A DNA stretch of 64,000 nucleotides from a phage, in the sequence record PQ327946.1, one strand, 5' to 3'. Both the position numbers and the translations under genes were made by a program. This document shows, piece by piece, positions 4,630-56,487 of this stretch (position 1 is the first letter of the stretch; every line of letters begins with the position of its first letter). The notes beneath the pieces were generated by a model that made no database searches, was not told where the DNA came from, and worked only from the letters and a program-made list of their open reading frames with translations.

Positions 4630-5955
4630 TCAAAGTGCCTCCAAGTCTTTAGTGTACTCTGTCACAACATCAGTAGACTTCCAATACTCATTTTCTTCTT
4701 TCTTAGCTTTAGCTTCTTCTGCCAGTTTACGTGCTTCGTCGGAAGTGATATGGAAGATGTTAAGACCTACCAGTTTATCGACATACTCTTTATACATTTC
4801 GATTTGTGCTAGCTCTTCAGTCAAAGCTTTACGAGTCTTGCCCTGAATCACAATTTCGCCACTGATAACTTTTTTGATGAAGTGTGCCTTAGCAAAAGCA
4901 AGTTTAAATGCTTTTTCAGATTCAAGGATTTTGTTGTCAATACGTTTCTGAACGTAAGTCTTACGGACTTCAACAAAATCTTTGATTAAGTCCACTACAT
5001 TATCATAGACTGCTAATTTACCCTTTTCATTAATCACTGTGATGTTTTGTGAACGACGTTCGATGAGACTAAAATCTTTCATGATTTTTTCATGACGTAG
5101 CTCTTCATCATCAGGAAGCGAGTACTCTTTACGGAACTTCACCTTAAACCCAAAGCCGTGTTCACCGCAATCATCTTCCCATGAGATTAGACCTTTGTCT
5201 TCCAACGGGTCAAGAACCTTACTCACATACGTTTCGCGGTCGAATTTATATGGGATTTCAGTTATCTGCATTTGAGTGCGAGATGTGAACTTATATGTTC
5301 CGTGAATCTCATAACGCCCATCAACTTCATGTACTTCACCACGGAATTCCGGGAATTCAACTTTTGGCTTAGTGACATTTTTACCTTGAAGAGCTTGTAA
5401 TACAGCCTTTTTGACTGATTTAAAACTATGAGGCAGAATATTTGTTGCGTAACCGGTTGCAATACCAGAGACACCATTCAAAAGAACTGTCGGAATAATA
5501 GGAAGATAGAATTTTGGTGGAATGTGTTCTTTATCTTCATGAGCTGGAGCATATTCAGTATCTTTATATACGTTATAGAAATTTTTACTTACACGAGCAA
5601 AAATATAACGAGATGCTGCAGCTTTTTGGACTGTTCGAGAACCAAAGTTGCCTTGGCCATCTAACAGTGGATAGTTGTTGTTCCATGTGTTAGCCATCAA
5701 TGCACCTGCATCTTGTGCAGAAGATTCACCATGGTGATAACCTAAATCTGCAACACCACCTGCAATTGACGCAAGTTTATGAAATTTTTCTTTATTGCCA
5801 CGAGCCAAATCTAACGCACGATGAACCACAAAACGTTGAACCGGCTTAAATCCATCAATCATGTTTGGGATTGCACGGTTTTCAACGGTGTACATCGCGT
5901 ATGCTAAGGCTTCGTTATCAATAATACTTTTTAGATTACGAGAATTCAATTGCAT
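4630..5955 (-). CDS. 52: DNA topoisomerase II medium subunit gp52 (GyrA-like)
   Basis: 441 aa; gyrase A-type segments (KPVQRFVVHRALDL, active-site region ..SRYIFAR..); T4 gp52 is of similar length. Confidence 0.85.
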   Translation of the reverse strand: MQLNSRNLKSIIDNEALAYAMYTVENRAIPNMIDGFKPVQRFVVHRALDLARGNKEKFHKLASIAGGVADLGYHHGESSAQDAGALMANTWNNNYPLLDGQGNFGSRTVQKAAASRYIFARVSKNFYNVYKDTEYAPAHEDKEHIPPKFYLPIIPTVLLNGVSGIATGYATNILPHSFKSVKKAVLQALQGKNVTKPKVEFPEFRGEVHEVDGRYEIHGTYKFTSRTQMQITEIPYKFDRETYVSKVLDPLEDKGLISWEDDCGEHGFGFKVKFRKEYSLPDDEELRHEKIMKDFSLIERRSQNITVINEKGKLAVYDNVVDLIKDFVEVRKTYVQKRIDNKILESEKAFKLAFAKAHFIKKVISGEIVIQGKTRKALTEELAQIEMYKEYVDKLVGLNIFHITSDEARKLAEEAKAKKEENEYWKSTDVVTEYTKDLEAL

Positions 5956-6100: not shown

Positions 6101-6246
6101 TACTCGCCTTTTAATACGTTAAAAAGAGCTAAGACCGCTAAGGTACCTTGTGACACCGCCTGTTGAAATACTGATGTTTCGCCTGTAACTAAAGTGTTAA
6201 TGAATAAAAACGACCAACACAACAATGCAATAATCCATGTTACCAT
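6100..6246 (-). CDS. Small hydrophobic membrane protein (about 48 aa), ac/stp region
   Basis: Hand-translated: MVTWIIALLCWSFLFINTLVTGE..; stop overlaps the next start (TAATG); coordinates approximate. Confidence 0.35.
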   Translation of the reverse strand: MVTWIIALLCWSFLFINTLVTGETSVFQQAVSQGTLAVLALFNVLKGE

Positions 6247-6298
6247 TTTAATTACCTCAAAAATAAATTAAAGGCCCAACTTAATAGGCCTGTATAAA

Positions 6299-6745
6299 TT
6301 AGTAACTCTGCAGAATGAATTTGAAATTATCAGCCAGAAGACGGTTCATTTCAGTGAGTGTTTGATATTCTGATGTATGGTTGCGAGTGAATGCCAGAGC
6401 CAATTGTCCTTTACCATAACCGGTAGTCAGGGGTTTCATGTTCTTAGCTGCAACAAAGATTACATCATATTCAATATTGTTAGTGCCCATAGTACGGGCT
6501 AGTTGCGAACGGCCTTGACGAATGTGAGAAAGAATTGCATCCAACCCTTGTTTAGAACGTTGACGTCCTACAAAGAATCGTGCTGCTACTTGACGCCAAT
6601 CAGATGAACCTTTAACAAAGAAGTAAAAACCTTCACGAGAACGAAACTCTTTAGAAACTTCAGAACCGTATTCGCCATTACGAACTACTGCAACAACTTC
6701 ACCGCCAACTGCCAGAAGGTCTTTACGAGTTAAATATTTGGACAT
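6299..6745 (-). CDS. ndd: Probable nucleoid disruption protein Ndd
   Basis: 148 aa ORF at the position and of the size expected for T4 ndd (between ac and denB); no motif check possible. Confidence 0.45.
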
Positions 6746-11903: not shown

Positions 11904-13004
11904 TTATGCTGTGAAGATTTTATCCCACATCGCAACAACTGCATCTCGGTTATACTTCTTCCATACTGCTTCAGCACGTTTAACTCGAGCTTCGTATGTA
12001 TCAGTGAATTCTAATACAGCTTTTGTGTAAAGCGCAACTACTTCTTTCTTAGGAGTAGAGGAATCAATTTCTACACGCACAGTATCTGGGTCGTATTCAA
12101 ATGTCGCATGAGGATAATCCTTAAAAACTAACTGGATTACAGGGACACCTTTAGAGATGGCTTCAATAGAACTATTCTCTACTGTACCTGTGTCAGGACA
12201 AGTATTAATAAGTGCTTTAGCTGTTTTAAGACGTTCCATGATTTCACTGTGTGGAGCATCAATAATAACAGGATATTTAGCTGGTGGTGCCCATTTGCTT
12301 GGACAGTATCCTACACCATTTTCGCCTAGTGCTTTAATTGCTTCAAGAGCAACATCAGTGCGACGCATTTTAGTGTCATAACGTTGTGCACTAATAATCA
12401 GATCAGTCGCCGGAAGAACTTCAGGTTTCTCATTCAAACAAATAACCGGATAATCTTCGGCTTCAAACAACGGATTTGCTCGCCAATAATCATAATCAAT
12501 TTTGTCAGTCAGACCTGAAGTCATATAACAATATTTGCGTTCAAATTCACGGAAGGCTTTAGTAGGAGCATAACTCTTACCACCATTCTTATGAATTTGA
12601 ATAGTCTGGTCCCAAATTTGAACAATGCCACGAGATACTGGTTCAAATGGTGTTGCCATAAAATTCTTATGAACTTTAGAGAGACCTGCGTCTTTAATTG
12701 CCTGAACGGTTAGTTTAGTCGGTTCCATAGTAACAACAAAATCGTATTCATGGATGCCGGCTAGTTCAACAATCTTACGAGCCATAGTATAACTCATACC
12801 TAGACTGAATTTAGTCAGATGACCAACAGGATGGTGTGTAACTTTCCAGTCACCAAACGTGTCATTATCAAAGCCGATATAATCAATATCAGCACCGATG
12901 GACACAAGATATTTCAACACATTTAAATGTACTGCTTCAAGGCCACCTTGTACACGGTCAGGATTAAATGGGACTGCGCGAGATGGGATAAACATAACTT
13001 TCAT
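11904..13004 (-). CDS. GT-B fold glycosyltransferase, candidate DNA (5-hmC) glycosyl/arabinosyl transferase
   Basis: 366 aa; C-terminal motif VENSSIEAISKGVPVIQ resembles the GT4/GT-B donor-binding signature; sits between rIIA.1 and 39 where T4 has gene 60. Confidence 0.55.
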   Translation of the reverse strand: MKVMFIPSRAVPFNPDRVQGGLEAVHLNVLKYLVSIGADIDYIGFDNDTFGDWKVTHHPVGHLTKFSLGMSYTMARKIVELAGIHEYDFVVTMEPTKLTVQAIKDAGLSKVHKNFMATPFEPVSRGIVQIWDQTIQIHKNGGKSYAPTKAFREFERKYCYMTSGLTDKIDYDYWRANPLFEAEDYPVICLNEKPEVLPATDLIISAQRYDTKMRRTDVALEAIKALGENGVGYCPSKWAPPAKYPVIIDAPHSEIMERLKTAKALINTCPDTGTVENSSIEAISKGVPVIQLVFKDYPHATFEYDPDTVRVEIDSSTPKKEVVALYTKAVLEFTDTYEARVKRAEAVWKKYNRDAVVAMWDKIFTA

Positions 13005-23653: not shown

Positions 23654-24175
23654 TTAGTAACCATTATCCTGGCGTTCAAAGTTGTGTTGGTTTTTCAGGT
23701 AATACAGTTTGAAGATTTCTTCAGCAGAAAGTCCTAGACCTTGGAACATATTTAGAACGAAATGCAGAATATCAATCATCTCGAATTTAATTTCAAGCTG
23801 GTCTTCAGGAGACAGTTCATCGATACGACGATTTCGATATTCAGCATGCTGGGCCTTCCACGGCTTCCATACAGAGCTAGCGGCCTTTTCACCATTGCTC
23901 ATACCACCAAGTGAAGTCAGCAGTTCACGGAATTCATCATCAATATAATCTTTCTGATTACGCAGCCAATCAACAACATCACCAGCAGTAGCCAATTCAT
24001 CAGGATGTTTGTTATGTTCAGGCTTGTCATTTGCCAGACGAACCTGTAAAGATTTCTGCATATCAAGCATTACCTGCAGAGGGTCTTTATCTTCGTGAAT
24101 CAGAGCATTAAAATAAGCTTCTTCTGCTTTATCAACACCAGAAATAAGTTGTGAGCATTCGTTAAAGTGCGCCAT
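23654..24175 (-). CDS. 56: dCTP pyrophosphatase gp56 (MazG-like)
   Basis: Start set at MAHFNECSQL to match the T4 gp56 N-terminus; MazG-like core ..ELATAGDVVDW.. Confidence 0.75.
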   Translation of the reverse strand: MAHFNECSQLISGVDKAEEAYFNALIHEDKDPLQVMLDMQKSLQVRLANDKPEHNKHPDELATAGDVVDWLRNQKDYIDDEFRELLTSLGGMSNGEKAASSVWKPWKAQHAEYRNRRIDELSPEDQLEIKFEMIDILHFVLNMFQGLGLSAEEIFKLYYLKNQHNFERQDNGY

Positions 24176-24265
24176 TATTTTTCCTTTCAATTCAGTATAA
24201 GAGAAGTTAATTCTAACATTAATTTTATAAAGCGTAATAAATAATAAGGTAACTAAGGAGATATT

Positions 24266-32152: not shown

Positions 32153-32252
32153 TGTATTTTTCCATAGGCATCATTATATTTTACTCATGTTTAAAAGATA
32201 AGACGATTATATACTAAGGGTTATACAGCATTTAAAAACTTTAAACAGGCTC

Positions 32253-32801
32253 TTAACGAGCCCATTTGATAATTTCTGTAATCAAATTATTACGTTCGCT
32301 TGCATTAAATCCTATAACTTTGTTAGCACCATCATGATTAAGTAATTGATACGTTTGGATTTCGTTATGAATTGCAAACTCTTCAAAATATGAAATGACT
32401 GTATTAAAACCGAATGAAGACAAAGTAATAAGGTCGTCTTCAAAACTTTCAGTCATTTCGTTACGTGTTAAAATAATTGTGAACACATCATGGTTTTGGC
32501 AAAGACGAACATAATCCTGTTCATAAACGTCAAGAACCGAGTCCGCATCTTGTCGAATACGTCCATAAACCCAGTTACTAATATATCCACGGTCTAACAG
32601 ATAAATCTTAGTAGGGTCTAAATAATTCAACATCGTTTCGAAACAGCCAACTTCATTTCGAGACTTAACATCGAAACGTCCATCAACTGTTCGTTTAAGG
32701 AAATCAATCTTTACATATCTTTCACTAATTTCCATTATGTCATTAATGAAAGTTGTTTTACCAGCATTATCCGGGCCATCTACTAAAATAATTTTAGCCA
32801 T
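32253..32801 (-). CDS. P-loop nucleoside/nucleotide kinase-like protein
   Basis: 182 aa; Walker A GPDNAGKTT and LLDRGYISNWVYG (dNK/thymidylate-kinase-like DR motif); occupies the locus where T4 has beta-gt. Confidence 0.45.
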   Translation of the reverse strand: MAKIILVDGPDNAGKTTFINDIMEISERYVKIDFLKRTVDGRFDVKSRNEVGCFETMLNYLDPTKIYLLDRGYISNWVYGRIRQDADSVLDVYEQDYVRLCQNHDVFTIILTRNEMTESFEDDLITLSSFGFNTVISYFEEFAIHNEIQTYQLLNHDGANKVIGFNASERNNLITEIIKWAR

Positions 32802-32802
32802 T

Positions 32803-33702
32803 TTATTCCTCGATTACGACATCTTCATATTTAGGTATATTATACGGTGAAGAAATTAAAGCGTTAAAGTAGATGAACTCACCAAGACCTGGATGGAATA
32901 CTTCTTCAGGATTTTCGAAATATTGAATCTTCGGACGTCCTTTAAGAATTTGATAGTACTCAGTTTTAGTTGGATTAAAAATTCGAATCAGCGCTTCTTC
33001 AGGATACTTATTTCTGTCGAAACTATTATTTGGATCAGTTATATAAAGCGGTTGACCTAATTGAATTGCGCATTCAACCACTTGTTCAAAACGATAGCAC
33101 GGGTCACTAATTCGAAATGGATGAAAAATACCATCTAGATGAATAGGAGCCAAATCACCTACAAGACGCTGCATGATGGAAGGACGTATAACTTTCTGCG
33201 TTACGATAATCTTATTACCATCCGCACCAGCGTTAACCAGCACTTCCTTTTGACGTTCATTCAACACAGTAGTTTGAAGTGAACGATTAACCGACAACAT
33301 GTCGGTTTTTAAGAATTCGTCAATATAAAAACGCGGTTTATTAGGGTCTGCGGTGATATTGAAATTGAATTCTACATCAAAAGCACCATCATATCCAGTG
33401 ATATCTGTTATTAGAAAATCACAATCATAATAAGCAATTAATGAATCAACCACAAATTCATTTTCAGACCAGAAATATTTACGAGTGTTATACGCGTTAT
33501 CTTTATACCATAATGGAACAAACTTAAATTCTGGGAAAAGACGTTCACATTCTTTAATATCAGATGCATTACGTGGATATGTAATCACATCACCTGGATT
33601 AGCACGGTGCAAATGAAGTTGGAAGTTGCCATCCTTAAGGATAGCATACTGTCCAGTTTCATAAGACCGCATACTCAAGATAGGTACGCGGAAAATAGCC
33701 AT
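32803..33702 (-). CDS. Hypothetical protein (299 aa), candidate DNA-modification enzyme
   Basis: No recognisable motif; directly coupled (ATGA overlap) to gene 42 where T4 has beta-glucosyltransferase. Confidence 0.45.
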   Translation of the reverse strand: MAIFRVPILSMRSYETGQYAILKDGNFQLHLHRANPGDVITYPRNASDIKECERLFPEFKFVPLWYKDNAYNTRKYFWSENEFVVDSLIAYYDCDFLITDITGYDGAFDVEFNFNITADPNKPRFYIDEFLKTDMLSVNRSLQTTVLNERQKEVLVNAGADGNKIIVTQKVIRPSIMQRLVGDLAPIHLDGIFHPFRISDPCYRFEQVVECAIQLGQPLYITDPNNSFDRNKYPEEALIRIFNPTKTEYYQILKGRPKIQYFENPEEVFHPGLGEFIYFNALISSPYNIPKYEDVVIEE

Positions 33703-34418
33703 TAGTCAAGGAATCCTTTAACATAATCAAAATCACGTTCAAACACATGGGCACTTACCATGGTATGAGTATAATCACCAACTTCTACACCACATTCGTT
33801 AGCGATATAATGAAGTAATTTTCCTTGGAGATAAAAATCCAACTGCATAACAACAGCACAGTTCTGAGAACGCATATGGCAGTGGGTATAAAGCTTACCA
33901 TCACGAATATAATAAGTCACCGAGTCAGTACATGGATATTCAAGCGTTTCGTCCGAATCAAGCAAAGCCTGATCAGAACTTTCTAGAATTTGGAACACAA
34001 CTCTTCGGGAGTTAGGCTTCTCTTTAAGTTCTTTTAGAAGAGCTGGTAATTGGGCCGCAATGCGAGGACCATAGAAAGTGTTGAAGTTCGCCGGCAAAAC
34101 ATCTGATTTTGGTTTAGAAATAAATTTAGCGACATTAGGATATGCCTTAAACGCTTCTTCTGCGTCAGTACCACCAGAAATCATAAACTTCCAGAAGTCT
34201 TCGGCATATTCATAAGAGATGCGGTTAATACGTGGGTCGGTCATTTTGAATGATGATGGAGTGTCAACAACTACTGTCATAGACCCAATTTCATTACAAC
34301 GTCCAATACGAGAATCAGTTACGAATTCCGGGTTTTCTAAAATTTCACGATTGACTGCTTTAAATGCGGTTTGAAAATCTGCGGCTTTGATATATTTCAT
34401 TGTGTTATGTTTTCCCAT
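33702..34418 (-). CDS. 42: dCMP hydroxymethylase gp42 / thymidylate-synthase-family enzyme
   Basis: 238 aa; TS-family catalytic EYPCTD and SAHVFERDF motifs; position between uvsX and 43 as T4 gene 42. Confidence 0.6.
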   Translation of the reverse strand: MGKHNTMKYIKAADFQTAFKAVNREILENPEFVTDSRIGRCNEIGSMTVVVDTPSSFKMTDPRINRISYEYAEDFWKFMISGGTDAEEAFKAYPNVAKFISKPKSDVLPANFNTFYGPRIAAQLPALLKELKEKPNSRRVVFQILESSDQALLDSDETLEYPCTDSVTYYIRDGKLYTHCHMRSQNCAVVMQLDFYLQGKLLHYIANECGVEVGDYTHTMVSAHVFERDFDYVKGFLD

Positions 34419-34696
34419 GTTTACCTCAATACAATTTATTATATACTCAATTCGTAAAGCTTATTTGAATTTCTTGACAATGTTGATATAACGTAAAGCT
34501 TCAGCATCGATACTTCCAAGAACACTATGAAGAAATGCATCAGCGTAGTATTCCAATTAAACAGGTTCTTTAATCACTTTAGCCGCTTTAGTTTCAAACA
34601 GGCCCATCAGGGCCTTTTTAAGAATTTGTTCGATGCTGTTAATTTTCATAGTCAAAATCTCTTCGTTAAGTTGGTGGTTAAAAGTTTTTCTAGAAA

Positions 34697-35857
34697 TCAT
34701 TCTGGGTACCTCAAAGCGTCGTCAGAGTTAGTTATATCAATAATAGATATAGAATTTTCTGATAACCCATTTTTAGATAACTGACGTTTATAATATCTTT
34801 CACAATATGTACACGTCGTCCCGCAGATTTCATTAGCACAATCGAAATCTGGATGTTTGAACCACCTTTTTTCTAAAAAGCCATCTAACAAAGAGGTTTC
34901 AATATTTACCGTATGTGAAAACTCGGTCTCATTTTCAAGAGTGAAAATGGTCTCTAAAGGCTTCCACAATTCCAACAAATTACCTTCAAATTTTTCGGAA
35001 GCATAAGCTTCAAGAACTTTCAAAATGTAGTCTGTGCTACCTGTACGTCCTGAAACTTTGAATTGAGTGATACCAATATCATTATAAAGTTTCAAATCTT
35101 GAGGACGAACAAAACGAGTTCTCAACCAGTTAAATGGGTCTGTATCACGAGCTTTAATACAGTGCTGCATTGGATACCCATTTAAGGATTTGGCATCATC
35201 TACTGTAACATCGGTGCTATGGAAAATATAGCAAGAGTCACGATAACTACAATGTGTTGTATACCCTTTACCAGCATTAGAACAGAACTCATTTACAAGA
35301 ACTTCAAATATTATATTGTTCTTATTACAAAACTCTGCTGCACGCTTCAGGAAAGAAACTGAACGGTTCTTATGAATTCCGCAGCAGACCTTTTTGATAT
35401 TATATTGGTCATGCAAGTATTTGATTTGAGTTACAGCATCGACATGTAGAATTGTTGAAACTTCAATCTCAATGTCTTTATTGACTTCACGAACAATTTC
35501 CATAACAACAGGGTTAGCGATAGTAATACGCCATACGCCTATTGACCAAAGATACTGAACATAATCCTGAATAGCTTTCTTCTTCCACTCAACTAGTTCT
35601 CTTTTTGAACCAGGATTTATCGTGTTGAGTGTATAGTTAAAGCAAATACCTAATTCGTTACAACGTTTAACGTAGTCTTCTAACATCTTTTTGTCAACGT
35701 CAGGAAGCCTAAAATCAGGTCTGGCTGCTACAAAAGCCATTTCTCTTGTAGAGCCATATACTTCGTTTATCAAGCTATTAGGATAGGTTTTATTGAGCTC
35801 TACGATTTTATCAAGAAGAGCTAAATCAAAATTCGTTCCGATTTTAAAAGTATTCAT
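34697..35857 (-). CDS. U32-peptidase-like Cys-rich protein
   Basis: 386 aa; FNYTLNT and EVLVNEFCSNAGKGYTTHCSY resemble the U32 signature; C-terminal cluster CANEICGTTCTYC; family assignment tentative. Confidence 0.35.
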   Translation of the reverse strand: MNTFKIGTNFDLALLDKIVELNKTYPNSLINEVYGSTREMAFVAARPDFRLPDVDKKMLEDYVKRCNELGICFNYTLNTINPGSKRELVEWKKKAIQDYVQYLWSIGVWRITIANPVVMEIVREVNKDIEIEVSTILHVDAVTQIKYLHDQYNIKKVCCGIHKNRSVSFLKRAAEFCNKNNIIFEVLVNEFCSNAGKGYTTHCSYRDSCYIFHSTDVTVDDAKSLNGYPMQHCIKARDTDPFNWLRTRFVRPQDLKLYNDIGITQFKVSGRTGSTDYILKVLEAYASEKFEGNLLELWKPLETIFTLENETEFSHTVNIETSLLDGFLEKRWFKHPDFDCANEICGTTCTYCERYYKRQLSKNGLSENSISIIDITNSDDALRYPE

Positions 35858-35914
35858 TTTTTTTGCATCCCACGTTAATTGATGCGATGGTTTTTGCAGG
35901 TCTTACTTAAATTA

Positions 35915-36301
35915 TTATAGATTCGGTTTATATGATTTAAATGTTTCGAATTCGCCTTTATTCATAAGAGCTTTGAATTCGTCAGGACGCATAGCTTTGT
36001 CGTCGATAATCCAATCATATACTGGTTTATGTGTTAGCAAATTATGGTACTTCAATCCAATGTTTGCCAAGTTCTGAATCAGACTTGGGAGAATGTCAAT
36101 TGCTATACGACCAGGACCGACTGACTTCATACCGCGAGCAGTGTAAAGCGTTATGGTATGCCCTGCATCATACAGGGCATTAATGGCAGATACCATTTCG
36201 ACGTCTGGTTTGAAGTTCACGTAATCACGATTGTTATTCCACTCTGTTATACAATCATCGACATCAAAACAAAGATTAAGCATGTTTTCTACACGGTGCA
36301 T
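35915..36301 (-). CDS. HAD-superfamily phosphatase (KdsC-like)
   Basis: Motif I LCFDVDDCIT near the N-terminus; start set at the ATG overlapping the upstream stop (TAATG). Confidence 0.5.
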   Translation of the reverse strand: MHRVENMLNLCFDVDDCITEWNNNRDYVNFKPDVEMVSAINALYDAGHTITLYTARGMKSVGPGRIAIDILPSLIQNLANIGLKYHNLLTHKPVYDWIIDDKAMRPDEFKALMNKGEFETFKSYKPNL

Positions 36302-37986
36302 TAGATTCGTTCCCATTGATGAGTGATATCGCCACCGATTGGACGATAAGAAACACCAGTTTCTTTATCAGTTAGTACCCATTTACCAGGATTTTTTGTA
36401 ATCAGAGTAGCCGTTACAGGTTCTGCTACATCATAACTAATAGTGCCGTCCTGAAGTACACGGCCCATGTTACGTAATTGCTTAGTCAGAAGTTCCATAC
36501 CTTTATAATATGCGGCTACCGCTTTAAGTGGATTATTCTTGAAATAACCACCTAATGCAATCCAGATAATTGCTACAGCCAAATGATGATACTCATTAAA
36601 CGAACTCATCTTTCCATATTTGTAAACTAATGGATTGATGTTAATAGTCACATTACAAGTTGTTTCATCAATAGTAAACTGACCCCAGGTCGGATTAGCG
36701 TTGAATTCATCATAACCTGAAACAGCATAAAGCACTTTAGCTTCATCATACAATTTTGGCCCATAAATCTTGGTTTCACCAAAATATCCACGAGGGTCGA
36801 TAAACTTGACTTCACCATTATCAGTAATCATAGTATTACTGAAGTTCGGGTCACCATGAATAACAGAGTACTGTCCCTGAGAACGGTTATGATAACGAAT
36901 AAGGTGTTCTAAAGCTTGTTTCAGCATTGGCTTCAGACGCCCAATCTTAGTGTAGTTCACATGTGTGATTTTACCAAATGAATCAATCAATGGTTGAATA
37001 CTTTCACAACGATCAATAACTTTCGTATAGAATTCTTTAGTGAAATCACGACGAACAGTTTCAGGACTTACAAAATAAGTGTCTGTGCTGAATTTCAGTG
37101 CGTCTAAAATTGCATCAACAATTTGTGGACGAGCAAGACTCGATTTGGATTTAATATATTCAAATGCTGGCTTACCTTTAATGCGTTCCATTTCAAAGTT
37201 ATTTTCATTAACAGAAACTAACTGAGGAACTGAATCTGATTTCACTTTAAGATACCATGAAATCTCATCTTTCTGAAGAGCTCGTCCCTGTTCGGTTAAT
37301 GCGAATTTAGTTACAGTTTCTTCACCAATTTCAACTGCATTAAAACTACGATTAAGTTCACGAACTTCATGAGCTTTTTCAAGTTTAGGCATATCACCTA
37401 AATCAATTAGATTCATAAGCTCTGATTTATTGAATGCGCTGCCGTAAAGGAATTCTACGAAATCACGTCCTTTGCAGTATTCATGAATTTCCTCATCAGT
37501 AGAACCCATATAGAATTCCCAGTCTTTGAACTGATAAATTCCTACAACATTACCACCTGTTGAACCTACGTTAGTGATATTTTCGCCGTCGAAATTATAT
37601 CGACATTCGTCACCCTTAACATAGATTGCGTTAACATTCCAAGACCATGAACCAAAATCAGGAATAATATCACACCAGTTAACAATTACATTATGACCGT
37701 CTAAATCTTTGTGTAATTTAGCAAGAGCATAAGCAGAACCGTACGCTTCATCAACTGTACGAATAGTCACATTGAACCCTTCTTGCTCACAATAAACTCG
37801 AACAGTTTCAGCAAATTTTGAATGAACTACTACAATAATTTCATCTGCGCCAAGGTCAGAATAAATTGTATACAAATTGCTCAGAATAGTGTCTTGTTTA
37901 TAGTTAACAAGCACCTTAGGAATATGATGCGTTATTGGATACAAACGAGTTGCCAGTCCAGCACCAAGAATAACAGCTTTTTTCAT
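36301..37986 (-). CDS. Bifunctional sugar-1-phosphate nucleotidyltransferase / sugar kinase
   Basis: 561 aa; N-terminal AVILGAGLATRL nucleotidyltransferase glycine loop; C-terminal VIHGDPNFSNTMI..FIDPRG of APH/choline-kinase-type kinases. Confidence 0.6.
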   Translation of the reverse strand: MKKAVILGAGLATRLYPITHHIPKVLVNYKQDTILSNLYTIYSDLGADEIIVVVHSKFAETVRVYCEQEGFNVTIRTVDEAYGSAYALAKLHKDLDGHNVIVNWCDIIPDFGSWSWNVNAIYVKGDECRYNFDGENITNVGSTGGNVVGIYQFKDWEFYMGSTDEEIHEYCKGRDFVEFLYGSAFNKSELMNLIDLGDMPKLEKAHEVRELNRSFNAVEIGEETVTKFALTEQGRALQKDEISWYLKVKSDSVPQLVSVNENNFEMERIKGKPAFEYIKSKSSLARPQIVDAILDALKFSTDTYFVSPETVRRDFTKEFYTKVIDRCESIQPLIDSFGKITHVNYTKIGRLKPMLKQALEHLIRYHNRSQGQYSVIHGDPNFSNTMITDNGEVKFIDPRGYFGETKIYGPKLYDEAKVLYAVSGYDEFNANPTWGQFTIDETTCNVTININPLVYKYGKMSSFNEYHHLAVAIIWIALGGYFKNNPLKAVAAYYKGMELLTKQLRNMGRVLQDGTISYDVAEPVTATLITKNPGKWVLTDKETGVSYRPIGGDITHQWERI

Positions 37987-38027
37987 GTTGTGGTCCTCAT
38001 TGGTAAGTAGGAGTATTGTACACTATT

Positions 38028-38171
38028 CTAGTTAAAGCATTCATACTTTGCTTGTAGTCCAATCATAATCCATCCGATTATAAGAGTCGGAATCATTACT
38101 GGAGCCGTTAAGCTCCAGTAGATAGTCATGACAAGCATCAATAGTAAAAGTCCTATTGTTATTGCTTTCAT
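38028..38171 (-). CDS. Small membrane protein (about 47 aa)
   Basis: Hand-translated MKAITIGLLLLMLVMTIYWSL..; ATGA overlap with the SIS gene stop; coordinates approximate. Confidence 0.3.
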   Translation of the reverse strand: MKAITIGLLLLMLVMTIYWSLTAPVMIPTLIIGWIMIGLQAKYECFN

Positions 38172-38803
38172 TGTTCGCCTCGTAACATGGCACCTAGTGC
38201 ACCGCCAGGGTGGAACTTAAGGAAGTCATTAGAGGTAAATCCACGTTCAGACGAAAGGTTGATAGCAAACGTATCGATAAGCGCTAACAACAATGTAGTG
38301 GACATAGTCGGAGCCAGAGAATTCTCATCAACCTCTACTGCGATGCCTGTACAGAACGTATAATCAAAAAGAGCTTCGTATTCTTGTGGAATGTCTGGGT
38401 TACAATGCAACAGAATCTGTTTGACGTTCGGACGAATCATTTTAAGATGCTTAGCCACGCCTATCATTTCTTCAGTTTTACCAGAACGACTAATATGAAT
38501 CAACACATCATTAGGCGCAATGAATCCTGCATCACCGTGAGAATAATGCCCGGTGTTCAAGTACATACTCGGGATACCGAGTGAAGCAAATGTCTCAGAA
38601 GCTTTAGTTGCGATATTAGCGTTCTTACCAACACCTGTAATAATTACACGACTTTCATAATTACTAAGTCCTGGGCGTCGAAGAGTTTCTAGAATAGCAT
38701 TATAACGAGCAGGGTTTTGACTAATTACTTTGGCCATAGCGGCCAAAGAAGAAGCTTGTTTTATGATTGCGTCAATAGCGATAGTAATAGGAGTAGTTTT
38801 CAT
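38168..38803 (-). CDS. SIS-domain sugar-phosphate isomerase (arabinose-5-phosphate isomerase KdsD/KpsF-like, no CBS domains)
   Basis: 211 aa; ITGVGKNANIATKASETFASLGIPSMYLNTGHYSHGDAG matches the KdsD/GmhA SIS core pattern. Confidence 0.6.
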   Translation of the reverse strand: MKTTPITIAIDAIIKQASSLAAMAKVISQNPARYNAILETLRRPGLSNYESRVIITGVGKNANIATKASETFASLGIPSMYLNTGHYSHGDAGFIAPNDVLIHISRSGKTEEMIGVAKHLKMIRPNVKQILLHCNPDIPQEYEALFDYTFCTGIAVEVDENSLAPTMSTTLLLALIDTFAINLSSERGFTSNDFLKFHPGGALGAMLRGEQ

Positions 38804-38843
38804 ATTTCTCTCATTTAATTAGTTTACCGTCCATGGCATTATA

Positions 38844-41555
38844 TCAAAAATCGAACATATCGAACAGAGATGCTTTCTTCTCGTAATCGAGTTTCGCTGC
38901 TGATGTGAATCCTTCAAGTGGTTTAATAAATGTCTTCTCAAGGAGAACAGTGTAGTCCATCCAATGAAGTACGTCGTCTTTAATTAAATCTGTGATTTCA
39001 GTACCAGAAGGCCATGCGATACATTTATCACCGAATGGGTTTCCTTCACGTAAAGGCAGAACATATACTTTTTCACCTTCTACAACTTGCGGTGCATCGA
39101 TATTACCTTTGATAGCACGGTTATACGTCAGAATTCCACGAATATGGAATGGGCATTTGGGACCAGGGAATCCACCTACATCATATTTAGCAATGTTATT
39201 CGCAGAAGATACCGACGCGATGCTAATATAATTCAATTGACGGAATTCTTTTTCAAACTCTTTAAAATATTCTTGTAATGATTCTTCACCTTCTTGAAGC
39301 ATACGACGAATACATTCTTTAAGAGCTTTCTGTACTGCTTTAGGAGTCGAAGATTTCTGAGTCTCTAGACCCATGATTTTGAGTTTAGGCTCAGCATAAC
39401 GAGTACCTTCCATATCCCACACGTTTAATGCATAACGTTTCTTACCAGTCCAGAATCCACCAATACCTTTAGAACCGAGTGGAGGCCCGGCGATAGCTTC
39501 TCGGTCCATGAACATTAAGTGTTGTTTATTGTTCATGTATTCACACATTTCACGGAAACCTCTATCAATAGCTGGTTCCATACGTTCACGTGCAAACTTA
39601 TCTAAGAAGTCTACCCAATGGTTGGTATCACGGAATTTAGATTCACCAACCTTATCGATAATTTTATCAGCAGATACGTAAATAGAGTCTGTATCACCAT
39701 AAAGAACGAAAGCTTCACCTTCTGTACCACAAACTTCATTCAGATATTCATTAACTTTACGTTCAATCCACTGTAAAGCCATTTGACCAAATGTTGTGAT
39801 TGCAGTAGCATTACGCAAATCGTAATAACGGAACCAAACGTTTCCAAGTGCACCATAAAGCGAGTTGATGAGCAATTTACGGTTAATCTGTGCAGTCATA
39901 CCTGCAACTTCAGTACGTTGAGCTCTAAACAACATTTCATTAAGAGATTTAGCAGACAACTTTTTAATCTTTTCTTTAATCTCATCACTGAAGTCGAAAC
40001 GATAATCAACATCTAATGGTTCGTCAACAGAAAGATTAGGATTATGCAATGCCTCTTTAATTATTTCACCATTACGTTGAGCCGCAAGCATATAACCTTT
40101 ATGTTCTTTACGTTGATTAAAGACTTTAGTGATTTCAGTTGGAACAACACCGTCACGGTCTTTATAATACATCATGCCGTTAGGAGAACAACTGTACACA
40201 TCAGAAGGACGTTCAGCAACAGCGTTAATATAATCATGCAATGGAGCTACTTTAAACGTTCCTGCTATTGTTTCCGGGCTAATATTCACTTGGCGAATAA
40301 TACTTGGATACAGAGATGTAAGGTCGAAACTCATTACATATTTGTATCGATTTGGAATAGGTTCCTTAACAAAAGCGCCGGGATAAGGTTGAACCGGGTG
40401 AGAACGACCTTGTGGAATCACCTTGTTCTGCTCTTTAAGGCTATTAAAAATAATAGCATCCCATGTTTTAATTGGGCTAAACACGGATTGAATCTGTATC
40501 TTAGCATAATAACCCATGTCCAAACTCAAGTTGATGAACTGACGCTTAGCATCAATTTGCAATACACGATACACGTCGATAATGTTATAAGAAATATATC
40601 GTTGGTGATTGCTTTCACGAAGCTTAGAAATAGGGCCGTCATATTTCAGTTTACCAACGTTCAATTCAAATTCTGAAATGTAATCCAGAGAATACGACGG
40701 TTGATTGGTAAAAGAGAATTTTTTGTAAAGGTCAATGTAATCAAGAACAGAGATACCGAATAATGTAATGATTTCACGAGAACCATACATGTTTTCGATA
40801 ACTTTAACACGAGTTTTACGATGTGGTGATAAACGTTTCGCAGTAGATTCGCCAAAAATATTCTTGATTCGGTTATACACATATGGAATATCAAATGACT
40901 CAACGTTCCATCCAGTCAAAATGACAGGAGTTTTCTGTTGCCAGAAATTGAGATATTCCATCAATAATTCTTTTTCGTTATCGAACGGCATATAAATGAT
41001 TTTATCGATAATTTCGGATGGAACTTCATCACCACCTTGTTCTTGAAGCTTAGCCGCAATTTCGATAGACCATTCTTCTACATTACCATATGGAGAATTC
41101 AATAGATCAAATACGTAGAACCTGTCGTCAATTGAGTCATAATGGGTGATAGCATCAATCGGATGTTTTGCTTGTGACGGCTCAGGGAACCCATCCGGAG
41201 ATGTTACTTCGATGTCGAAGTTAGCCACACGAATTTTTGTATGATCGTATTTGATTTCATAGTTATAAGTGTCAGACAAATACGCCAATTTGAAATCGTC
41301 CATGCCAAGTGCTTCAAGACCGATATCTTCCATGCGTTTAATCCATTGGGAGGCATCACGCATATTGGCGAACAACTTACGAGTACACGGCTTACCGTAG
41401 ATATCGAAATATTTCGTAGCCTGACTTTCCGGACAATGAGCAAACAGTGATGGTTTATATTCTACTTCACGAGTACGTTCACGGCCATTAGAATCGATGT
41501 AACGTTCAAAAATTGAATCACCAATCTGTTCAACCGTTAAGTAAAATTCTTTCAT
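38844..41555 (-). CDS. 43: DNA polymerase gp43 (family B)
   Basis: 903 aa; exonuclease FDIE motif; polymerase motifs DxxSLYPS and YGDTDS; size matches T4 gp43. Confidence 0.9.
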   Translation of the reverse strand: MKEFYLTVEQIGDSIFERYIDSNGRERTREVEYKPSLFAHCPESQATKYFDIYGKPCTRKLFANMRDASQWIKRMEDIGLEALGMDDFKLAYLSDTYNYEIKYDHTKIRVANFDIEVTSPDGFPEPSQAKHPIDAITHYDSIDDRFYVFDLLNSPYGNVEEWSIEIAAKLQEQGGDEVPSEIIDKIIYMPFDNEKELLMEYLNFWQQKTPVILTGWNVESFDIPYVYNRIKNIFGESTAKRLSPHRKTRVKVIENMYGSREIITLFGISVLDYIDLYKKFSFTNQPSYSLDYISEFELNVGKLKYDGPISKLRESNHQRYISYNIIDVYRVLQIDAKRQFINLSLDMGYYAKIQIQSVFSPIKTWDAIIFNSLKEQNKVIPQGRSHPVQPYPGAFVKEPIPNRYKYVMSFDLTSLYPSIIRQVNISPETIAGTFKVAPLHDYINAVAERPSDVYSCSPNGMMYYKDRDGVVPTEITKVFNQRKEHKGYMLAAQRNGEIIKEALHNPNLSVDEPLDVDYRFDFSDEIKEKIKKLSAKSLNEMLFRAQRTEVAGMTAQINRKLLINSLYGALGNVWFRYYDLRNATAITTFGQMALQWIERKVNEYLNEVCGTEGEAFVLYGDTDSIYVSADKIIDKVGESKFRDTNHWVDFLDKFARERMEPAIDRGFREMCEYMNNKQHLMFMDREAIAGPPLGSKGIGGFWTGKKRYALNVWDMEGTRYAEPKLKIMGLETQKSSTPKAVQKALKECIRRMLQEGEESLQEYFKEFEKEFRQLNYISIASVSSANNIAKYDVGGFPGPKCPFHIRGILTYNRAIKGNIDAPQVVEGEKVYVLPLREGNPFGDKCIAWPSGTEITDLIKDDVLHWMDYTVLLEKTFIKPLEGFTSAAKLDYEKKASLFDMFDF

Positions 41556-53732: not shown

Positions 53733-54203
53733 TTAATCATGTTTCCACACCCCATCGGTATTTGACCAAAGTCGCTGATTATCTGATCCTCGCCACATCT
53801 TTTTAGTCGGAAGATTTTTCTCATACTTCCCATCAATAATAACATCAACATATTTAAGCATTTCTAGTTGTTTAATATCTTCAAACTTATATCCTGTCCA
53901 CAACCAAATGCTTTTATTGGGATAAAGATTTTTTACTGTTTGAGCAATGCGATGAATAACATCTCGGTTATCAGGATAGAGAGGATCTCCTCCGGTTATA
54001 GTTAATCCTTCTATATAATCATTATTCAAACATTCAATCAATTGTTCTAGTGTTTCACCAGTGAATGGAATACCATTTCTAGCGTTCCATGTTGATTTAT
54101 TATAACACCCTTCGCATTTATGCAAACAACCTGTAACGAAAAGAACGACCCTGCAACCAGGGCCATTCACAAAATCGCAAGGATAAAATCTATCATAATT
54201 CAT
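53733..54203 (-). CDS. nrdG: Anaerobic ribonucleotide reductase activating protein NrdG (radical SAM)
   Basis: 156 aa; CxxxCxxC in CLHKCEGCYN; immediately downstream of nrdD. Confidence 0.85.
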   Translation of the reverse strand: MNYDRFYPCDFVNGPGCRVVLFVTGCLHKCEGCYNKSTWNARNGIPFTGETLEQLIECLNNDYIEGLTITGGDPLYPDNRDVIHRIAQTVKNLYPNKSIWLWTGYKFEDIKQLEMLKYVDVIIDGKYEKNLPTKKMWRGSDNQRLWSNTDGVWKHD

Positions 54204-56017
54204 TGGTGTTTAACCCTATGCATGATTTCTTTATTTTTACCGAGATTAAATCCGCGTTCGTTCGGATTTCCCAAATAACCACATGTTCTTCTTATGGTGT
54301 TCATCTTTTTAGGATCACTTTCTCCACAAACTGAACAAACAAATCCGTTTTCAGTAGGAGTCATTTCATGAGTACTTCCACATGTAAAACATTTATCTAC
54401 TGGCATATTAACACCAAAATAATCTAAATGTTGTGCAGCATAATCCCAGACAGCCTCAAGACCTTTTAAGTTATTTTTCATATCTGGAAGTTCAACATAA
54501 GAAATGTGACCGCCTGTTGCAATGAAATGATATGGGGCTTCGCGAGAAATCTTTTCAAATGGAGTAATATTTTCTTCTACTGAAACGTGGAAACTGTTAG
54601 TGTACCAGCCTTTATCGGTAACATCTTTTACACTTCCATATTTCTCAGTATCAAGTTTACAGAAGCGATAGCACAGGTTTTCAGCAGGAGTAGAATACAG
54701 GCTAAAAGCAAAACCGGTTCTTTCAGTCCACTGCTTAAGACGAGCATTCATTTTAGTTAAAATTTCCTGTCCAATATCACGTCCGACAAGAATATTCAAT
54801 TCGTGAATACCAATGTATCCTAGGGACACTGAACTTCTGCCGTTTTTAAATAACTCAATTATATCGTCATCAGGTTTAAGACGAACCCCGAATGCACCTT
54901 CTTGGTAAAGAATAGGAGCAACAGTAGCTTTAACTCCTTTTAAGGAACTAATTCTGCACATCAATGCTTCAAAACATAAATCCATTCGTTCATTGAATAA
55001 TTCAACAAATTTCTGTTCATTGAACTGTGTTCCAATATAAGAATCTAACGCAATACGAGGAAGATTCAGTGTTACAACACCAAGATTATTACGTCCATCA
55101 AGAATTTCATTACCAGTCGAATCTTTCCATACGCTCAAGAAACTACGACAGCCCATTGGAGAAACAGGAACAGATGAACCAGTGATAGCTTTATTATTCT
55201 TAACTGAAATAATATCAGGATACATTCTTTTGCTTGCACACTCTAGAGCAAGCTGCTTAATATCATAATTCGGATCGTCTTTATAAAGATTAACACCTTC
55301 TTCAACGAACATAACAAGTTTAGGGAAAATAGGAGTTATCCCATCGCGACCAAGACCTTTAATACGATTTTTCAGAATTGCTTTCTGAATCATTCGTTCA
55401 GTCCAGTCAGTTCCAGTACCAAATGTAATTGTCACAAAAGGCGTTTGTCCGTTTGAACTAAAGAGAGTATTTACTTCATATTCATAAGCTTGGAATGCAT
55501 CGTATACGTCTTTTTCTGTTTTAGATTGGGCATAATTCAGCGCATCAGCGATTTGCCATTTTTCTGCATCTTCAATATGTTTTGCGTAGGTGCGTTTAAC
55601 ATAAGGAGAAAGGACTTTATCTACATTCGCAAATGTAGTTCCACCGTATTGATGGGAAGCAACCTGCGCAGTAATTTGTGCCATAATTGCAGTAGCAACA
55701 CCAATCGATTTAGGCGTTTCAATTTGAGCATTGCCTAATTTAAATCCATTCTCAAGCATCCCCTTTAAATCGACTAAACAGCAATTAGTAAATGGAAGAG
55801 CAGGAGAATAATCAATATCATGCATGTGGATAATTCCACTTTCGTGTGCTTTCATAATAAAAGACGGGACCATATTTTTGGCAATGTGCTTAGACACAAT
55901 ACCAGCCATAAGGTCCCGTTGAGTTGGAAAAACACGAGAATCTTTATTAGCATTCTCGTTCAAAAGATCTTTATTAGTTTTATGAATTAATCCTTCAATT
56001 TCTTTTTCAATTTTCAT
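54200..56017 (-). CDS. nrdD: Anaerobic ribonucleoside-triphosphate reductase NrdD, intron-free
   Basis: 605 aa; C-terminal glycyl-radical motif RRTCGYLG and zinc-ribbon Cys; single continuous ORF. Confidence 0.9.
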   Translation of the reverse strand: MKIEKEIEGLIHKTNKDLLNENANKDSRVFPTQRDLMAGIVSKHIAKNMVPSFIMKAHESGIIHMHDIDYSPALPFTNCCLVDLKGMLENGFKLGNAQIETPKSIGVATAIMAQITAQVASHQYGGTTFANVDKVLSPYVKRTYAKHIEDAEKWQIADALNYAQSKTEKDVYDAFQAYEYEVNTLFSSNGQTPFVTITFGTGTDWTERMIQKAILKNRIKGLGRDGITPIFPKLVMFVEEGVNLYKDDPNYDIKQLALECASKRMYPDIISVKNNKAITGSSVPVSPMGCRSFLSVWKDSTGNEILDGRNNLGVVTLNLPRIALDSYIGTQFNEQKFVELFNERMDLCFEALMCRISSLKGVKATVAPILYQEGAFGVRLKPDDDIIELFKNGRSSVSLGYIGIHELNILVGRDIGQEILTKMNARLKQWTERTGFAFSLYSTPAENLCYRFCKLDTEKYGSVKDVTDKGWYTNSFHVSVEENITPFEKISREAPYHFIATGGHISYVELPDMKNNLKGLEAVWDYAAQHLDYFGVNMPVDKCFTCGSTHEMTPTENGFVCSVCGESDPKKMNTIRRTCGYLGNPNERGFNLGKNKEIMHRVKHQ

Positions 56018-56487
56018 TTTAAACTCTTTCTAAGCTGCTTTTTGAATGAAGCTATTAATTGTGTTTTGGTATCAGATTCATTATATTCAAATCCTCTTTG
56101 AAGCATCTCGGCCATCATTTCCTCTTTACCTAGTCTTGAGAACTCTTTAGTTTTGTCTGGAACAAAATTAGGATGGATATTATTATCAGAATAATCTTGT
56201 TTCAAATAAGCAAGAAGAGCTTCAAGCCATTCTAAGTAGTCAACGTTTTGTCCTTTCAAACCGGAACGGTTGAACTTATGCTTCATTTGACCTTCTGCTG
56301 CGTTGCACAGATTACAGAGTAAACCACGAACTCTACCTGCTTTTGGCCCGTTTAATTCGTGGTCGTGGTCAAGATGGTTACCTTGAACATCAGGGTCTAA
56401 TTCACGGTGGCAAATAGGACACTTACCATTCTGTGCATCATAAAATTTTTGTTTTTCTTCTTTATATTTTGCGCCTGATAATAACAT
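56014..56487 (-). CDS. 49: Endonuclease VII gp49 (Holliday junction resolvase)
   Basis: 157 aa; near-identical to remembered T4 endo VII (..GKCPICHREL..HLDHDHELNGPKAG..). Confidence 0.9.
   Translation of the reverse strand: MLLSGAKYKEEKQKFYDAQNGKCPICHRELDPDVQGNHLDHDHELNGPKAGRVRGLLCNLCNAAEGQMKHKFNRSGLKGQNVDYLEWLEALLAYLKQDYSDNNIHPNFVPDKTKEFSRLGKEEMMAEMLQRGFEYNESDTKTQLIASFKKQLRKSLK

Follow-up and report, generated by a model that had tools for sequence, protein, structure and literature searches.

Background

Why would a T4-like phage keep a set of genes for an activated sugar directly beside its DNA polymerase gene? The question is raised by the interval 34697-38803 of sequence record PQ327946.1, a phage DNA of 64,000 nucleotides that was analysed over its full length and is called the window here. 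A run of four sizeable open reading frames (ORFs) on the minus strand fills this interval, bounded on either side by minus-strand genes, that of the DNA polymerase (gene 43; 38844-41555) and that of a thymidylate-synthase homolog (33702-34418), exactly where a first-pass annotation of the sequence had placed four co-oriented genes, namely those for a SIS protein, a nucleotidyltransferase/kinase fusion, a HAD-like protein and a cysteine-rich U32 protein. The corresponding interval of T4, between genes 42 and 43, contains imm and imm.1 alone, in line with the imm-type small genes named in that annotation. Very probably, the window interval is the sugar-donor half of the cluster by which Mosigvirus phages would hypermodify their DNA with arabinosyl-5-hydroxycytosine, the U32 gene standing apart from it as a separate unit. 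The module as such is already known: a first proposal dates from 2018, and its characterisation followed in 2025-2026. For the U32 protein we put forward, leaning slightly towards doubt that the idea is both correct and unreported, a role as an O2-independent, prephenate-dependent hydroxylase that would make 5-hydroxycytosine.

Arabinose was found in the DNA of RB69, and ORF055c and ORF53_52c of that phage were proposed to supply uridine diphosphate (UDP) arabinose, the base being read at that time as arabinosyl-5-hydroxymethylcytosine (arabinosyl-hmC) (Thomas et al. 2018, PMC6024577). By nuclear magnetic resonance (NMR) and LC-MS (liquid chromatography coupled to mass spectrometry), the RB69 base was identified as mono- or di-arabinosylated 5-hydroxycytosine (5hoC) with an ether-linked sugar (Lee et al. 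2026, PMC13326640). In the same work, gp48 was found to bind flavin mononucleotide (FMN) and to make 5-hydroxy-deoxycytidine monophosphate (5-hydroxy-dCMP) with oxygen from 18O2, gp48 and a deoxynucleoside monophosphate (dNMP) kinase alone yielded 5-hydroxydeoxycytidine (5hodC) in Escherichia coli, and gp55, gp52:53 and gp51 were proposed to lead from ribulose-5-phosphate to a nucleoside diphosphate (NDP) arabinofuranose, probably UDP-arabinofuranose (PMC13326640). As summarised in that paper, the reconstituted HY126 pathway (He et al. 2026) begins with C1 phosphorylation by AfhE, proceeds to removal of the 5-phosphate by AfhF and ends with uridylylation, again by AfhE. Since the host is without an NDP-arabinose pool (PMC13326640), the phage must make the sugar donor itself, which is why the extra module exists.

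Results

The sugar-donor genes and their acceptor base

By its sequence, the window is an RB69-like Mosigvirus. Its region 32200-38900 is no chance arrangement, being covered to at least 80% by 152 phage records and matched at 95-99% identity by 155, with DNA that is 97.7-98.6% identical to RB69, S143_2, JS09 and about 150 other Mosigvirus records. From uvsX to gene 43 we find the same genes in the same order as in the RB69 gp45-gp55 cluster (PMC6024577, PMC13326640), whose proteins are 98.4-99.6% identical to those encoded here; the homolog of RB69 ORF049c is shortened by a nonsense codon, and all else comes down to point differences. Thus, the module is the published one, a matter on which the first-pass annotation had been unsure, and the arabinose that it had associated with RB69-like phages agrees with the sugar found in RB69 (PMC6024577, PMC13326640). 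Furthermore, gp46/47 and gp52/53, which are split in the RB69 reference record (locus L001, 2102-3002 and 5599-7285), are intact here as ORFs of 299 and 561 amino acids, which supports the published view that these splits are sequencing errors.

Profile and PDB searches upheld the family assignments that had been made for all four genes. The SIS protein (38168-38803, minus strand; 211 amino acids) matches Pfam SIS (1.7e-10), NCBIfam KpsF/GutQ (TIGR00393, 2.2e-32) and KdsD (1.2e-30) and, among PDB sequences, 3ETN (5.5e-25) and 2XHZ (6.5e-19), and is 99.1% identical to RB69 gp55. Its match to the KpsF model, which has 268 positions, is confined to positions 2-153, and it is SIS-only like 3ETN, the C-terminal tandem CBS domains not being present in the NCBIfam profile comparison. 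By these matches it is predicted to be a D-arabinose-5-phosphate isomerase that turns ribulose-5-phosphate into arabinose-5-phosphate. The fusion protein (36301-37986, minus strand; 561 amino acids), which is of the RB69 ORF53_52c and HY126 AfhE type and has homologs in 377 phage records, DLP3 among them, matches Pfam NTP_transferase at its N terminus (2e-9, residues 3-99), together with NCBIfam sugar-1-phosphate nucleotidylyltransferase models, and PDB entry 1JYK (1.7e-5), while its C-terminal part has weak kinase-family matches (residues 344-409) and an HGDxxxxN motif, here HGDPNFSN. With the function taken from PMC13326640, it is assigned as a putative arabinose-5-phosphate 1-kinase (C-terminal, APH/ChoK-like) joined to a UDP-arabinofuranose pyrophosphorylase (N-terminal).

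The HAD-like protein has 133 amino acids as the longest ORF (35915-36316, minus strand), and its start is likelier to be M6 at 36301 (giving 35915-36301), the start adopted for RB69 as well as for PDB entry 9IQW, with which the gene overlaps the stop codon of the upstream fusion gene as TAATG. A Pfam search with this protein gave no match; NCBIfam returned the capsule biosynthesis phosphatase model TIGR01689 (4.3e-13), a DVDD motif I is visible, and the PDB holds a chain identical to it at 100% over 129 residues (9IQW) as well as a further match, 1XPJ (5e-10). We therefore predict a phosphatase of the gp51/AfhF type, acting from arabinose-1,5-bisphosphate to arabinose-1-phosphate. The claim that the genes make an activated pentose from ribulose-5-phosphate, with which modified cytosine in the phage DNA is glycosylated, thus holds for three of the four. 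The U32 protein, which had been counted as an enzyme of the sugar pathway, has no role in the reconstituted pathway and is absent from the DLP3 and JS98 clusters, and the dephosphorylation that had been placed ahead of anomeric phosphorylation follows it in the reported order, the kinase acting first (HY126 AfhE/AfhF, summarised in PMC13326640).

The acceptor base had been taken to be 5-hydroxymethylcytosine (5-hmC) and the flanking gene to be the hydroxymethylase gene 42, neither of which withstood comparison. The thymidylate-synthase homolog is 99.6% identical to RB69 gp48 and only 26% identical to T4 gp42. It has Asn at the position of E. coli ThyA D169, where the Asp of the gp42 type is not kept, and Asp at that of N177, the published 5hoC signature (D169N/N177D); in the alignment, the window protein reads RSQN...QLD where E. 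coli ThyA has RSCD...PFN and T4 gp42 has RSND...FRND. Moreover, it is near-identical to PDB entries 9IQC, 9IR2 and 9IQU. All of this identifies it, by sequence, as a flavin- and O2-dependent 5-hydroxy-dCMP synthase, and the base to be glycosylated as 5-hydroxycytosine.

Two putative DNA arabinosyltransferases would use the donor. One is the 299-residue ORF at 32803-33702 (minus strand), colinear with RB69 gp47 plus gp46, for which Pfam and PDB sequence searches gave no match and whose type (RB69 gp46:47) was assigned by fold as a DNA arabinosyltransferase (PMC13326640). The other, a GT-B/GT4 protein homologous to RB69 ORF003c/gp3 (11904-13004, minus strand), lies between rIIA and gene 39, away from the module, yet consumes its product; it shares 99.2% identity with RB69 gp3, and a PDB search gave 9IQZ/9IR0 at 4.7e-251. 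We take 9IQC, 9IQU, 9IQW, 9IQZ, 9IR0 and 9IR2 to come from the HY126 study, an attribution that is unconfirmed. The nucleotide kinase at 32253-32801 (minus strand) is 98.4% identical to RB69 gp45, which is thymidylate-kinase-like by fold (PMC13326640 Table 1).

From these assignments, the following route would result. The SIS protein would turn host ribulose-5-phosphate into D-arabinose-5-phosphate, to which the C-terminal kinase domain of the 561-residue fusion would add a C1 phosphate, giving arabinose-1,5-bisphosphate; the HAD phosphatase would then take off the 5-phosphate, and the fusion's N-terminal nucleotidyltransferase domain would yield UDP-arabinofuranose. In parallel, the thymidylate-synthase homolog would hydroxylate dCMP at C5 with flavin and O2, kinases would phosphorylate 5-hydroxy-dCMP further to the triphosphate that enters DNA, and the two GT-B transferases (32803-33702 and 11904-13004) would attach a first and then a further arabinose to the 5-hydroxycytosine of the DNA. 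The route has experimental backing for near-identical RB69 and HY126 proteins and is carried over to the window by 98-100% identity, with essentially no observation speaking against it; likewise, we infer that the virion DNA of this phage carries mono- or di-arabinosyl-5-hydroxy-deoxycytidine instead of deoxycytidine.

Compared with the HY126 Afh pathway, both systems have an AfhE-type bifunctional enzyme and an AfhF-type phosphatase, and the window's hydroxylase and one of its transferases are near-identical to solved chains. The T4 system of hmC and glucose (gene 42, alpha-gt, beta-gt) shares with it the place in the genome and the logic, by which a thymidylate-synthase homolog produces a hydroxylated dCMP that the polymerase builds into DNA, where glycosylation follows. 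However, T4 uses a 5-hydroxymethyl group and folate, whereas the window system would use a 5-hydroxy group, flavin and O2, and a sugar donor made by the phage.

The U32 protein and its neighbours

The U32 protein (34697-35857, minus strand; 386 amino acids, 13 of them cysteines), the homolog of RB69 gp50, has a single Pfam domain, Peptidase_U32 (6.3e-11; 42.4 bits, cut-off 22.4), and a PDB sequence search with it gave no match. Its AlphaFold2 (AF2) model has a predicted local distance difference test (pLDDT) score of 92.7 and is best matched in the PDB by 5D88, with a template-modelling (TM) score of 0.72 normalised to the target; 5D88 is the sole U32 structure in the PDB, and the remaining top fold matches are generic TIM barrels. 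Invariant in 121 homologs, down to 46% identity, are C158, C192, C203, C209, H213, C233, C340, C345, C349 and C352, the last four forming a C-terminal motif CX4CX3CX2C (C340-X4-C345-X3-C349-X2-C352). C203 and C209 align with cysteines of UbiU, UbiV, RlhA and TrhP, whereas the spacing of C192, C203, C209 and C233 is CX10CX5CX23C in the phage protein versus CX6CX15CX3C in RlhA and TrhP; at about 20% identity to the E. coli U32 proteins, it belongs to a distinct subfamily. Across genera no other protein of the cluster is as well conserved: its identity is 80-87% versus 44-71% for the fusion enzyme in the same phages, and UvsX, at 64-68% in Proteus and Shewanella phages, also falls below it. Such identity, together with the invariant Cys/His set, points to strong selection on a metallo-cofactor enzyme, which may be one of the [4Fe-4S] type.

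In E. coli, RlhA is responsible for 5-hydroxycytidine at C2501 of 23S rRNA, TrhP for 5-hydroxyuridine (ho5U) in tRNA, and UbiU/UbiV act in ubiquinone formation, all of them independently of O2 and with a need for Fe-S clusters and prephenate (PMC5727448, PMC10990095); for UbiU/UbiV, prephenate was shown to be the oxygen donor (PMC10990095). The phage protein resembles these enzymes in its Peptidase_U32 domain, in the two aligning cysteines and, in related phages, in a partner that makes prephenate, and the 5-hydroxycytidine formed by RlhA represents the same base chemistry as that proposed here. It differs from them in having a C-terminal motif of its own and in a substrate that would be a deoxynucleotide or DNA.

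Prephenate is the product of chorismate mutase. Enterobacter phage Entb_45 has, across the stop codon of its U32 gene, an overlapping gene annotated as chorismate mutase, and in T4-like phages of Enterobacter, Klebsiella, Shewanella and Proteus the ORF directly after U32 matches Pfam CM_2 above the gathering threshold. Such mini chorismate mutase ORFs, recognised by CM_2, lie after U32 at 6158-6397 in locus L002, 6158-6403 in L003, 7134-7391 in L005 and 6530-6904 in L004. By tblastn, homologs of the phage chorismate mutase occur in 56 phage records, of which one is an unannotated faecal contig and the remainder are T4-like phages of host genera with U32-carrying phages (Klebsiella, Serratia, Yersinia, Enterobacter, Proteus, Shewanella and others); most of the annotated ones are flanked by a peptidase gene, a thymidylate-synthase homolog or both. 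The match in this unclassified faecal contig (MT836175.1, a 12-kb 'Bacteriophage sp.' from human faeces) is weak (33% identity, E = 3e-3) and lies at 5031-5285. The profile of the phage enzymes matches solved chorismate mutases (1YBZ, 3e-15) and has fourteen invariant residues, six of which (R8, R25, K36, E49, S71 and Q75) we take to correspond to AroQ catalytic positions. In the Shewanella phage Thanatos, U32 and chorismate mutase have shifted as a pair and now lie on the opposite side of the gene for the kinase. Even with such rearrangement, in all genera examined U32 sits inside the cluster for DNA modification; among T4-like phages, it always co-occurs with a thymidylate-synthase homolog of the 5hoC type.

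In the window, the U32-adjacent slot is taken by the shortened ORF049c homolog (34557-34700, minus strand; 47 amino acids), and Pfam, NCBIfam and hhalign recognised no chorismate mutase there. ORF049c was considered as a diverged chorismate mutase and rejected, having no CM_2 or NCBIfam match, an hhalign probability of 0.05% and none of the catalytic Arg residues; downstream of the new stop codon the remainder of its frame is still recognisable. As the Mosigvirus ORF in this slot is unrelated to chorismate mutase, prephenate would here come from host PheA/TyrA.

Distant homologs of the U32 protein, metagenomic and 50-58% identical, lie in phage-like or deoxynucleotide contexts. In loci L006 and L013 the homolog adjoins genes for dCMP deaminase and PolIII-alpha, and in L007 and L008 it stands among NT5C, a PnuC-type transporter, dNK and a nucleoside deoxyribosyltransferase. 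A recurrent cassette of a radical-SAM/SPASM protein, a protein of about 327 amino acids and U32 lies just upstream of PolIII-alpha in L020 (5459-9086) and L021 (5456-9101); this cassette, seen also in L006 and L007, further includes a thymidylate-kinase-like protein. On the 80-kb phage-like contig L012 (7001-9804), a Bacillus-type DAHP synthase (NCBIfam 237 bits versus 63 for KDO8P synthase) comes directly after the U32 homolog, then an NAD-dependent epimerase/reductase, while a 484-residue protein with weak nucleotidyltransferase and choline-kinase matches comes before it; DAHP synthase is the entry enzyme of the shikimate pathway. On the unrelated 61-kb phage contig L014 (7001-9000), a 50% identical homolog lies directly upstream of a TET-associated glycosyltransferase (TAGT; Pfam, 33.9 bits), with dUTPase/DCD and UDP-galactopyranose mutase close by and no thymidylate-synthase homolog found within 7 kb; in several of these phage contigs, none was found within 7-8 kb of U32. 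The L014 arrangement recalls the TET/JBP and TAGT cassettes, in that a hydroxyl-installing enzyme would stand beside a DNA glycosyltransferase. TET enzymes are dependent on O2 and 2-oxoglutarate and act on 5-methylcytosine in DNA, whereas U32 would be independent of O2 and act on an unmodified C5. Given the neighbours of these homologs, dCMP would most likely be its substrate.

The window also encodes NrdD, the anaerobic ribonucleotide reductase (54200-56017; Pfam NRDD, 1e-171). The phage is thus equipped for deoxynucleotide synthesis and replication without O2, yet the sole known way in which it makes its cytosine substitute requires O2. A probable dCTPase (23654-24190) would destroy dCTP, and anaerobic replication should fail unless an O2-independent route to the substitute exists. 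We propose that U32, together with chorismate mutase in most other genera, would be a two-gene cassette for O2-independent C5-hydroxylation of cytosine with prephenate, at the level of dCMP or DNA, and would back up the O2- and flavin-dependent 5-hydroxy-dCMP synthase when a facultatively anaerobic host grows anoxically, so that full replacement of cytosine would remain within reach of phages of gut bacteria and other facultative anaerobes.

The distribution of U32 bears on both of its suggested roles. The Acinetobacter phage DLP3 makes a tri-arabinosylated base (PMC13326640), and in its cluster, where isomerase, fusion enzyme, phosphatase, hydroxylase, transferases and kinase are present, U32 was not found; in that of JS98, an E. 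coli Dhakavirus, neither U32 nor the isomerase was found. Because both clusters are without it, U32 is not needed for UDP-arabinose. Among 222 U32 matches there was no Acinetobacter phage, though the fusion enzyme occurs in 57 Acinetobacter phage records. The link between U32 and the oxygen physiology of the host is nevertheless one-sided, and the pattern only partial.

Gene overlaps and signals around the locus

The genes had been described as translationally coupled, which stands inside blocks and fails between them. The SIS gene shares an ATGA overlap with a 47-residue ORF (38028-38171, minus strand; homolog of RB69 ORF054c), the fusion and HAD genes overlap as TAATG, and the U32 gene shares ATGA with the 47-residue ORF at 34557-34700, whereas gaps of 41 and 57 nucleotides separate the blocks. 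These two 47-residue ORFs had been overlooked in the first-pass list of genes. The one at 38028-38171, which overlaps the SIS stop codon, is very hydrophobic and gave no match in a Pfam search; a small membrane protein is its probable product. A copy of it adjoins imm in JS98, and the RB69 record describes ORF054c as 'similar to T4 42-imm intercistronic region'.

Scans of the region for sigma-70 and T4 late promoters gave matches at or below chance level, and we therefore claim no operon beyond the gene overlaps. Terminator-like hairpins are, in total, no more numerous in the region than by chance; one of them, with 10 pairs and a T-rich tail, lies at 32243-32267 (minus strand), directly 3' of the kinase gene, where the modification cluster ends on its downstream side. 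The base composition of the locus is unremarkable. Elsewhere in the window, endonuclease VII is encoded beside NrdD, at 56014-56487.

Discussion

The reading by which all four genes, U32 included, form one NDP-pentose pathway of isomerase, phosphatase, anomeric kinase and nucleotidyltransferase serving 5-hmC is one that we consider highly improbable. Its four family assignments are correct, arabinosyl-hmC was in print from 2018, and the neighbouring gene does encode a thymidylate-synthase homolog, like T4 gp42. However, for RB69 it is refuted by published chemistry, as NMR and mass spectrometry place an ether link on 5-hydroxycytosine (PMC13326640). Furthermore, RB69 gp48, 99.6% identical to the window protein, makes 5hodCMP, in keeping with the D169N signature and with the mere 26% identity to gp42, the kinase is reported to act ahead of the phosphatase, and DLP3 arrives at a tri-arabinosylated base without a U32 gene. 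For U32 itself, an alternative that appears unlikely, though the least so of those we weighed, is that it aids the O2-dependent route, as an Fe-S electron partner or reductase regenerating the flavin, or as a 'sugar or heterocycle reductase', the label it bears in PMC13326640 Table 1. Invariant Cys clusters suited to electron transfer speak for it, as does the fact that T4-like phages with U32 always have a thymidylate-synthase homolog of the 5hoC type; but gp48 and a dNMP kinase sufficed for 5hodC in E. coli, U32 homologs occur in phage contigs showing no thymidylate-synthase homolog within 7-8 kb, and the conserved chorismate mutase partner and the neighbouring DAHP synthase would be left unexplained.

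It seems more doubtful still that U32, with chorismate mutase where present, acts on RNA or quinones and so tunes translation or respiration apart from DNA modification. Every characterised U32 hydroxylase does act on RNA or on ubiquinone precursors, and T4-like phages carry their own tRNAs, which we count in its favour. Against this, U32 is embedded in a DNA-modification cluster in every genus examined, its distant homologs adjoin dCMP deaminase, dUTPase/DCD, dNK, NT5C and a DNA glycosyltransferase, and with 386 amino acids and a single Pfam domain it is without the extra domains of RlhA and TrhP. Many records annotate the protein as a 'peptidase' or 'collagenase-like protease', but a genuine collagenase-type peptidase, or a passenger without function, is hardly to be expected where identity reaches 80-87% while UvsX reaches 64-68% and where the Cys/His set is invariant; moreover, the peptidase activity of the U32 family has itself been questioned (PMC5727448). 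We give that explanation very little credence.

The O2-independent hydroxylase that we prefer for U32 is a predicted role, which we infer from genomic context and from the chemistry of the family, and several observations weigh against it. E. coli Dhakaviruses such as JS98 do without U32 despite a facultatively anaerobic host. In Mosigvirus, the window included, the slot that elsewhere holds chorismate mutase contains an unrelated ORF (79 amino acids in RB69), and in the window a CAA-to-TAA change at codon 48 (stop codon 34557-34559) leaves 47 amino acids of it. Among the Fe-S cysteines, only C203 and C209 align unambiguously, and when set against single E. coli U32 sequences, the profile of the family alignment scored weakly (probability 5% for UbiU), family membership being taken from Pfam and fold. 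An in vitro hydroxylase assay is lacking even for RlhA, TrhP and UbiU/UbiV (PMC10990095). Finally, the only treatment of gp50 in PMC13326640 is its entry in a table, as 'sugar or heterocycle reductase'; the same paper mentions other pathways of pyrimidine hydroxylation, citing the RlhA paper, without a tie to gp50. In the full-text literature that was searched, whose coverage leaves out He et al. 2026 and Mahler et al. 2025, we found no publication linking U32 to phage DNA modification, and the Thanatos paper and the Durham-collection paper mention neither U32 nor chorismate mutase.

Conclusions

That the module is how RB69-like phages obtain a sugar donor missing from the host, thereby shielding their DNA from restriction and CRISPR, is settled science. 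If the role proposed for U32 is true, it would explain how a DNA modification that requires O2 is kept up in the anoxic gut, and prephenate-dependent hydroxylation would reach beyond RNA and quinones to the precursors of DNA. U32 would then be the first enzyme of its family with a small-molecule nucleotide as substrate, a simple one for the first in vitro assay of a U32 hydroxylase, and the subfamily of 50-58% identical proteins would represent a previously unrecognised class of DNA-base hydroxylases.

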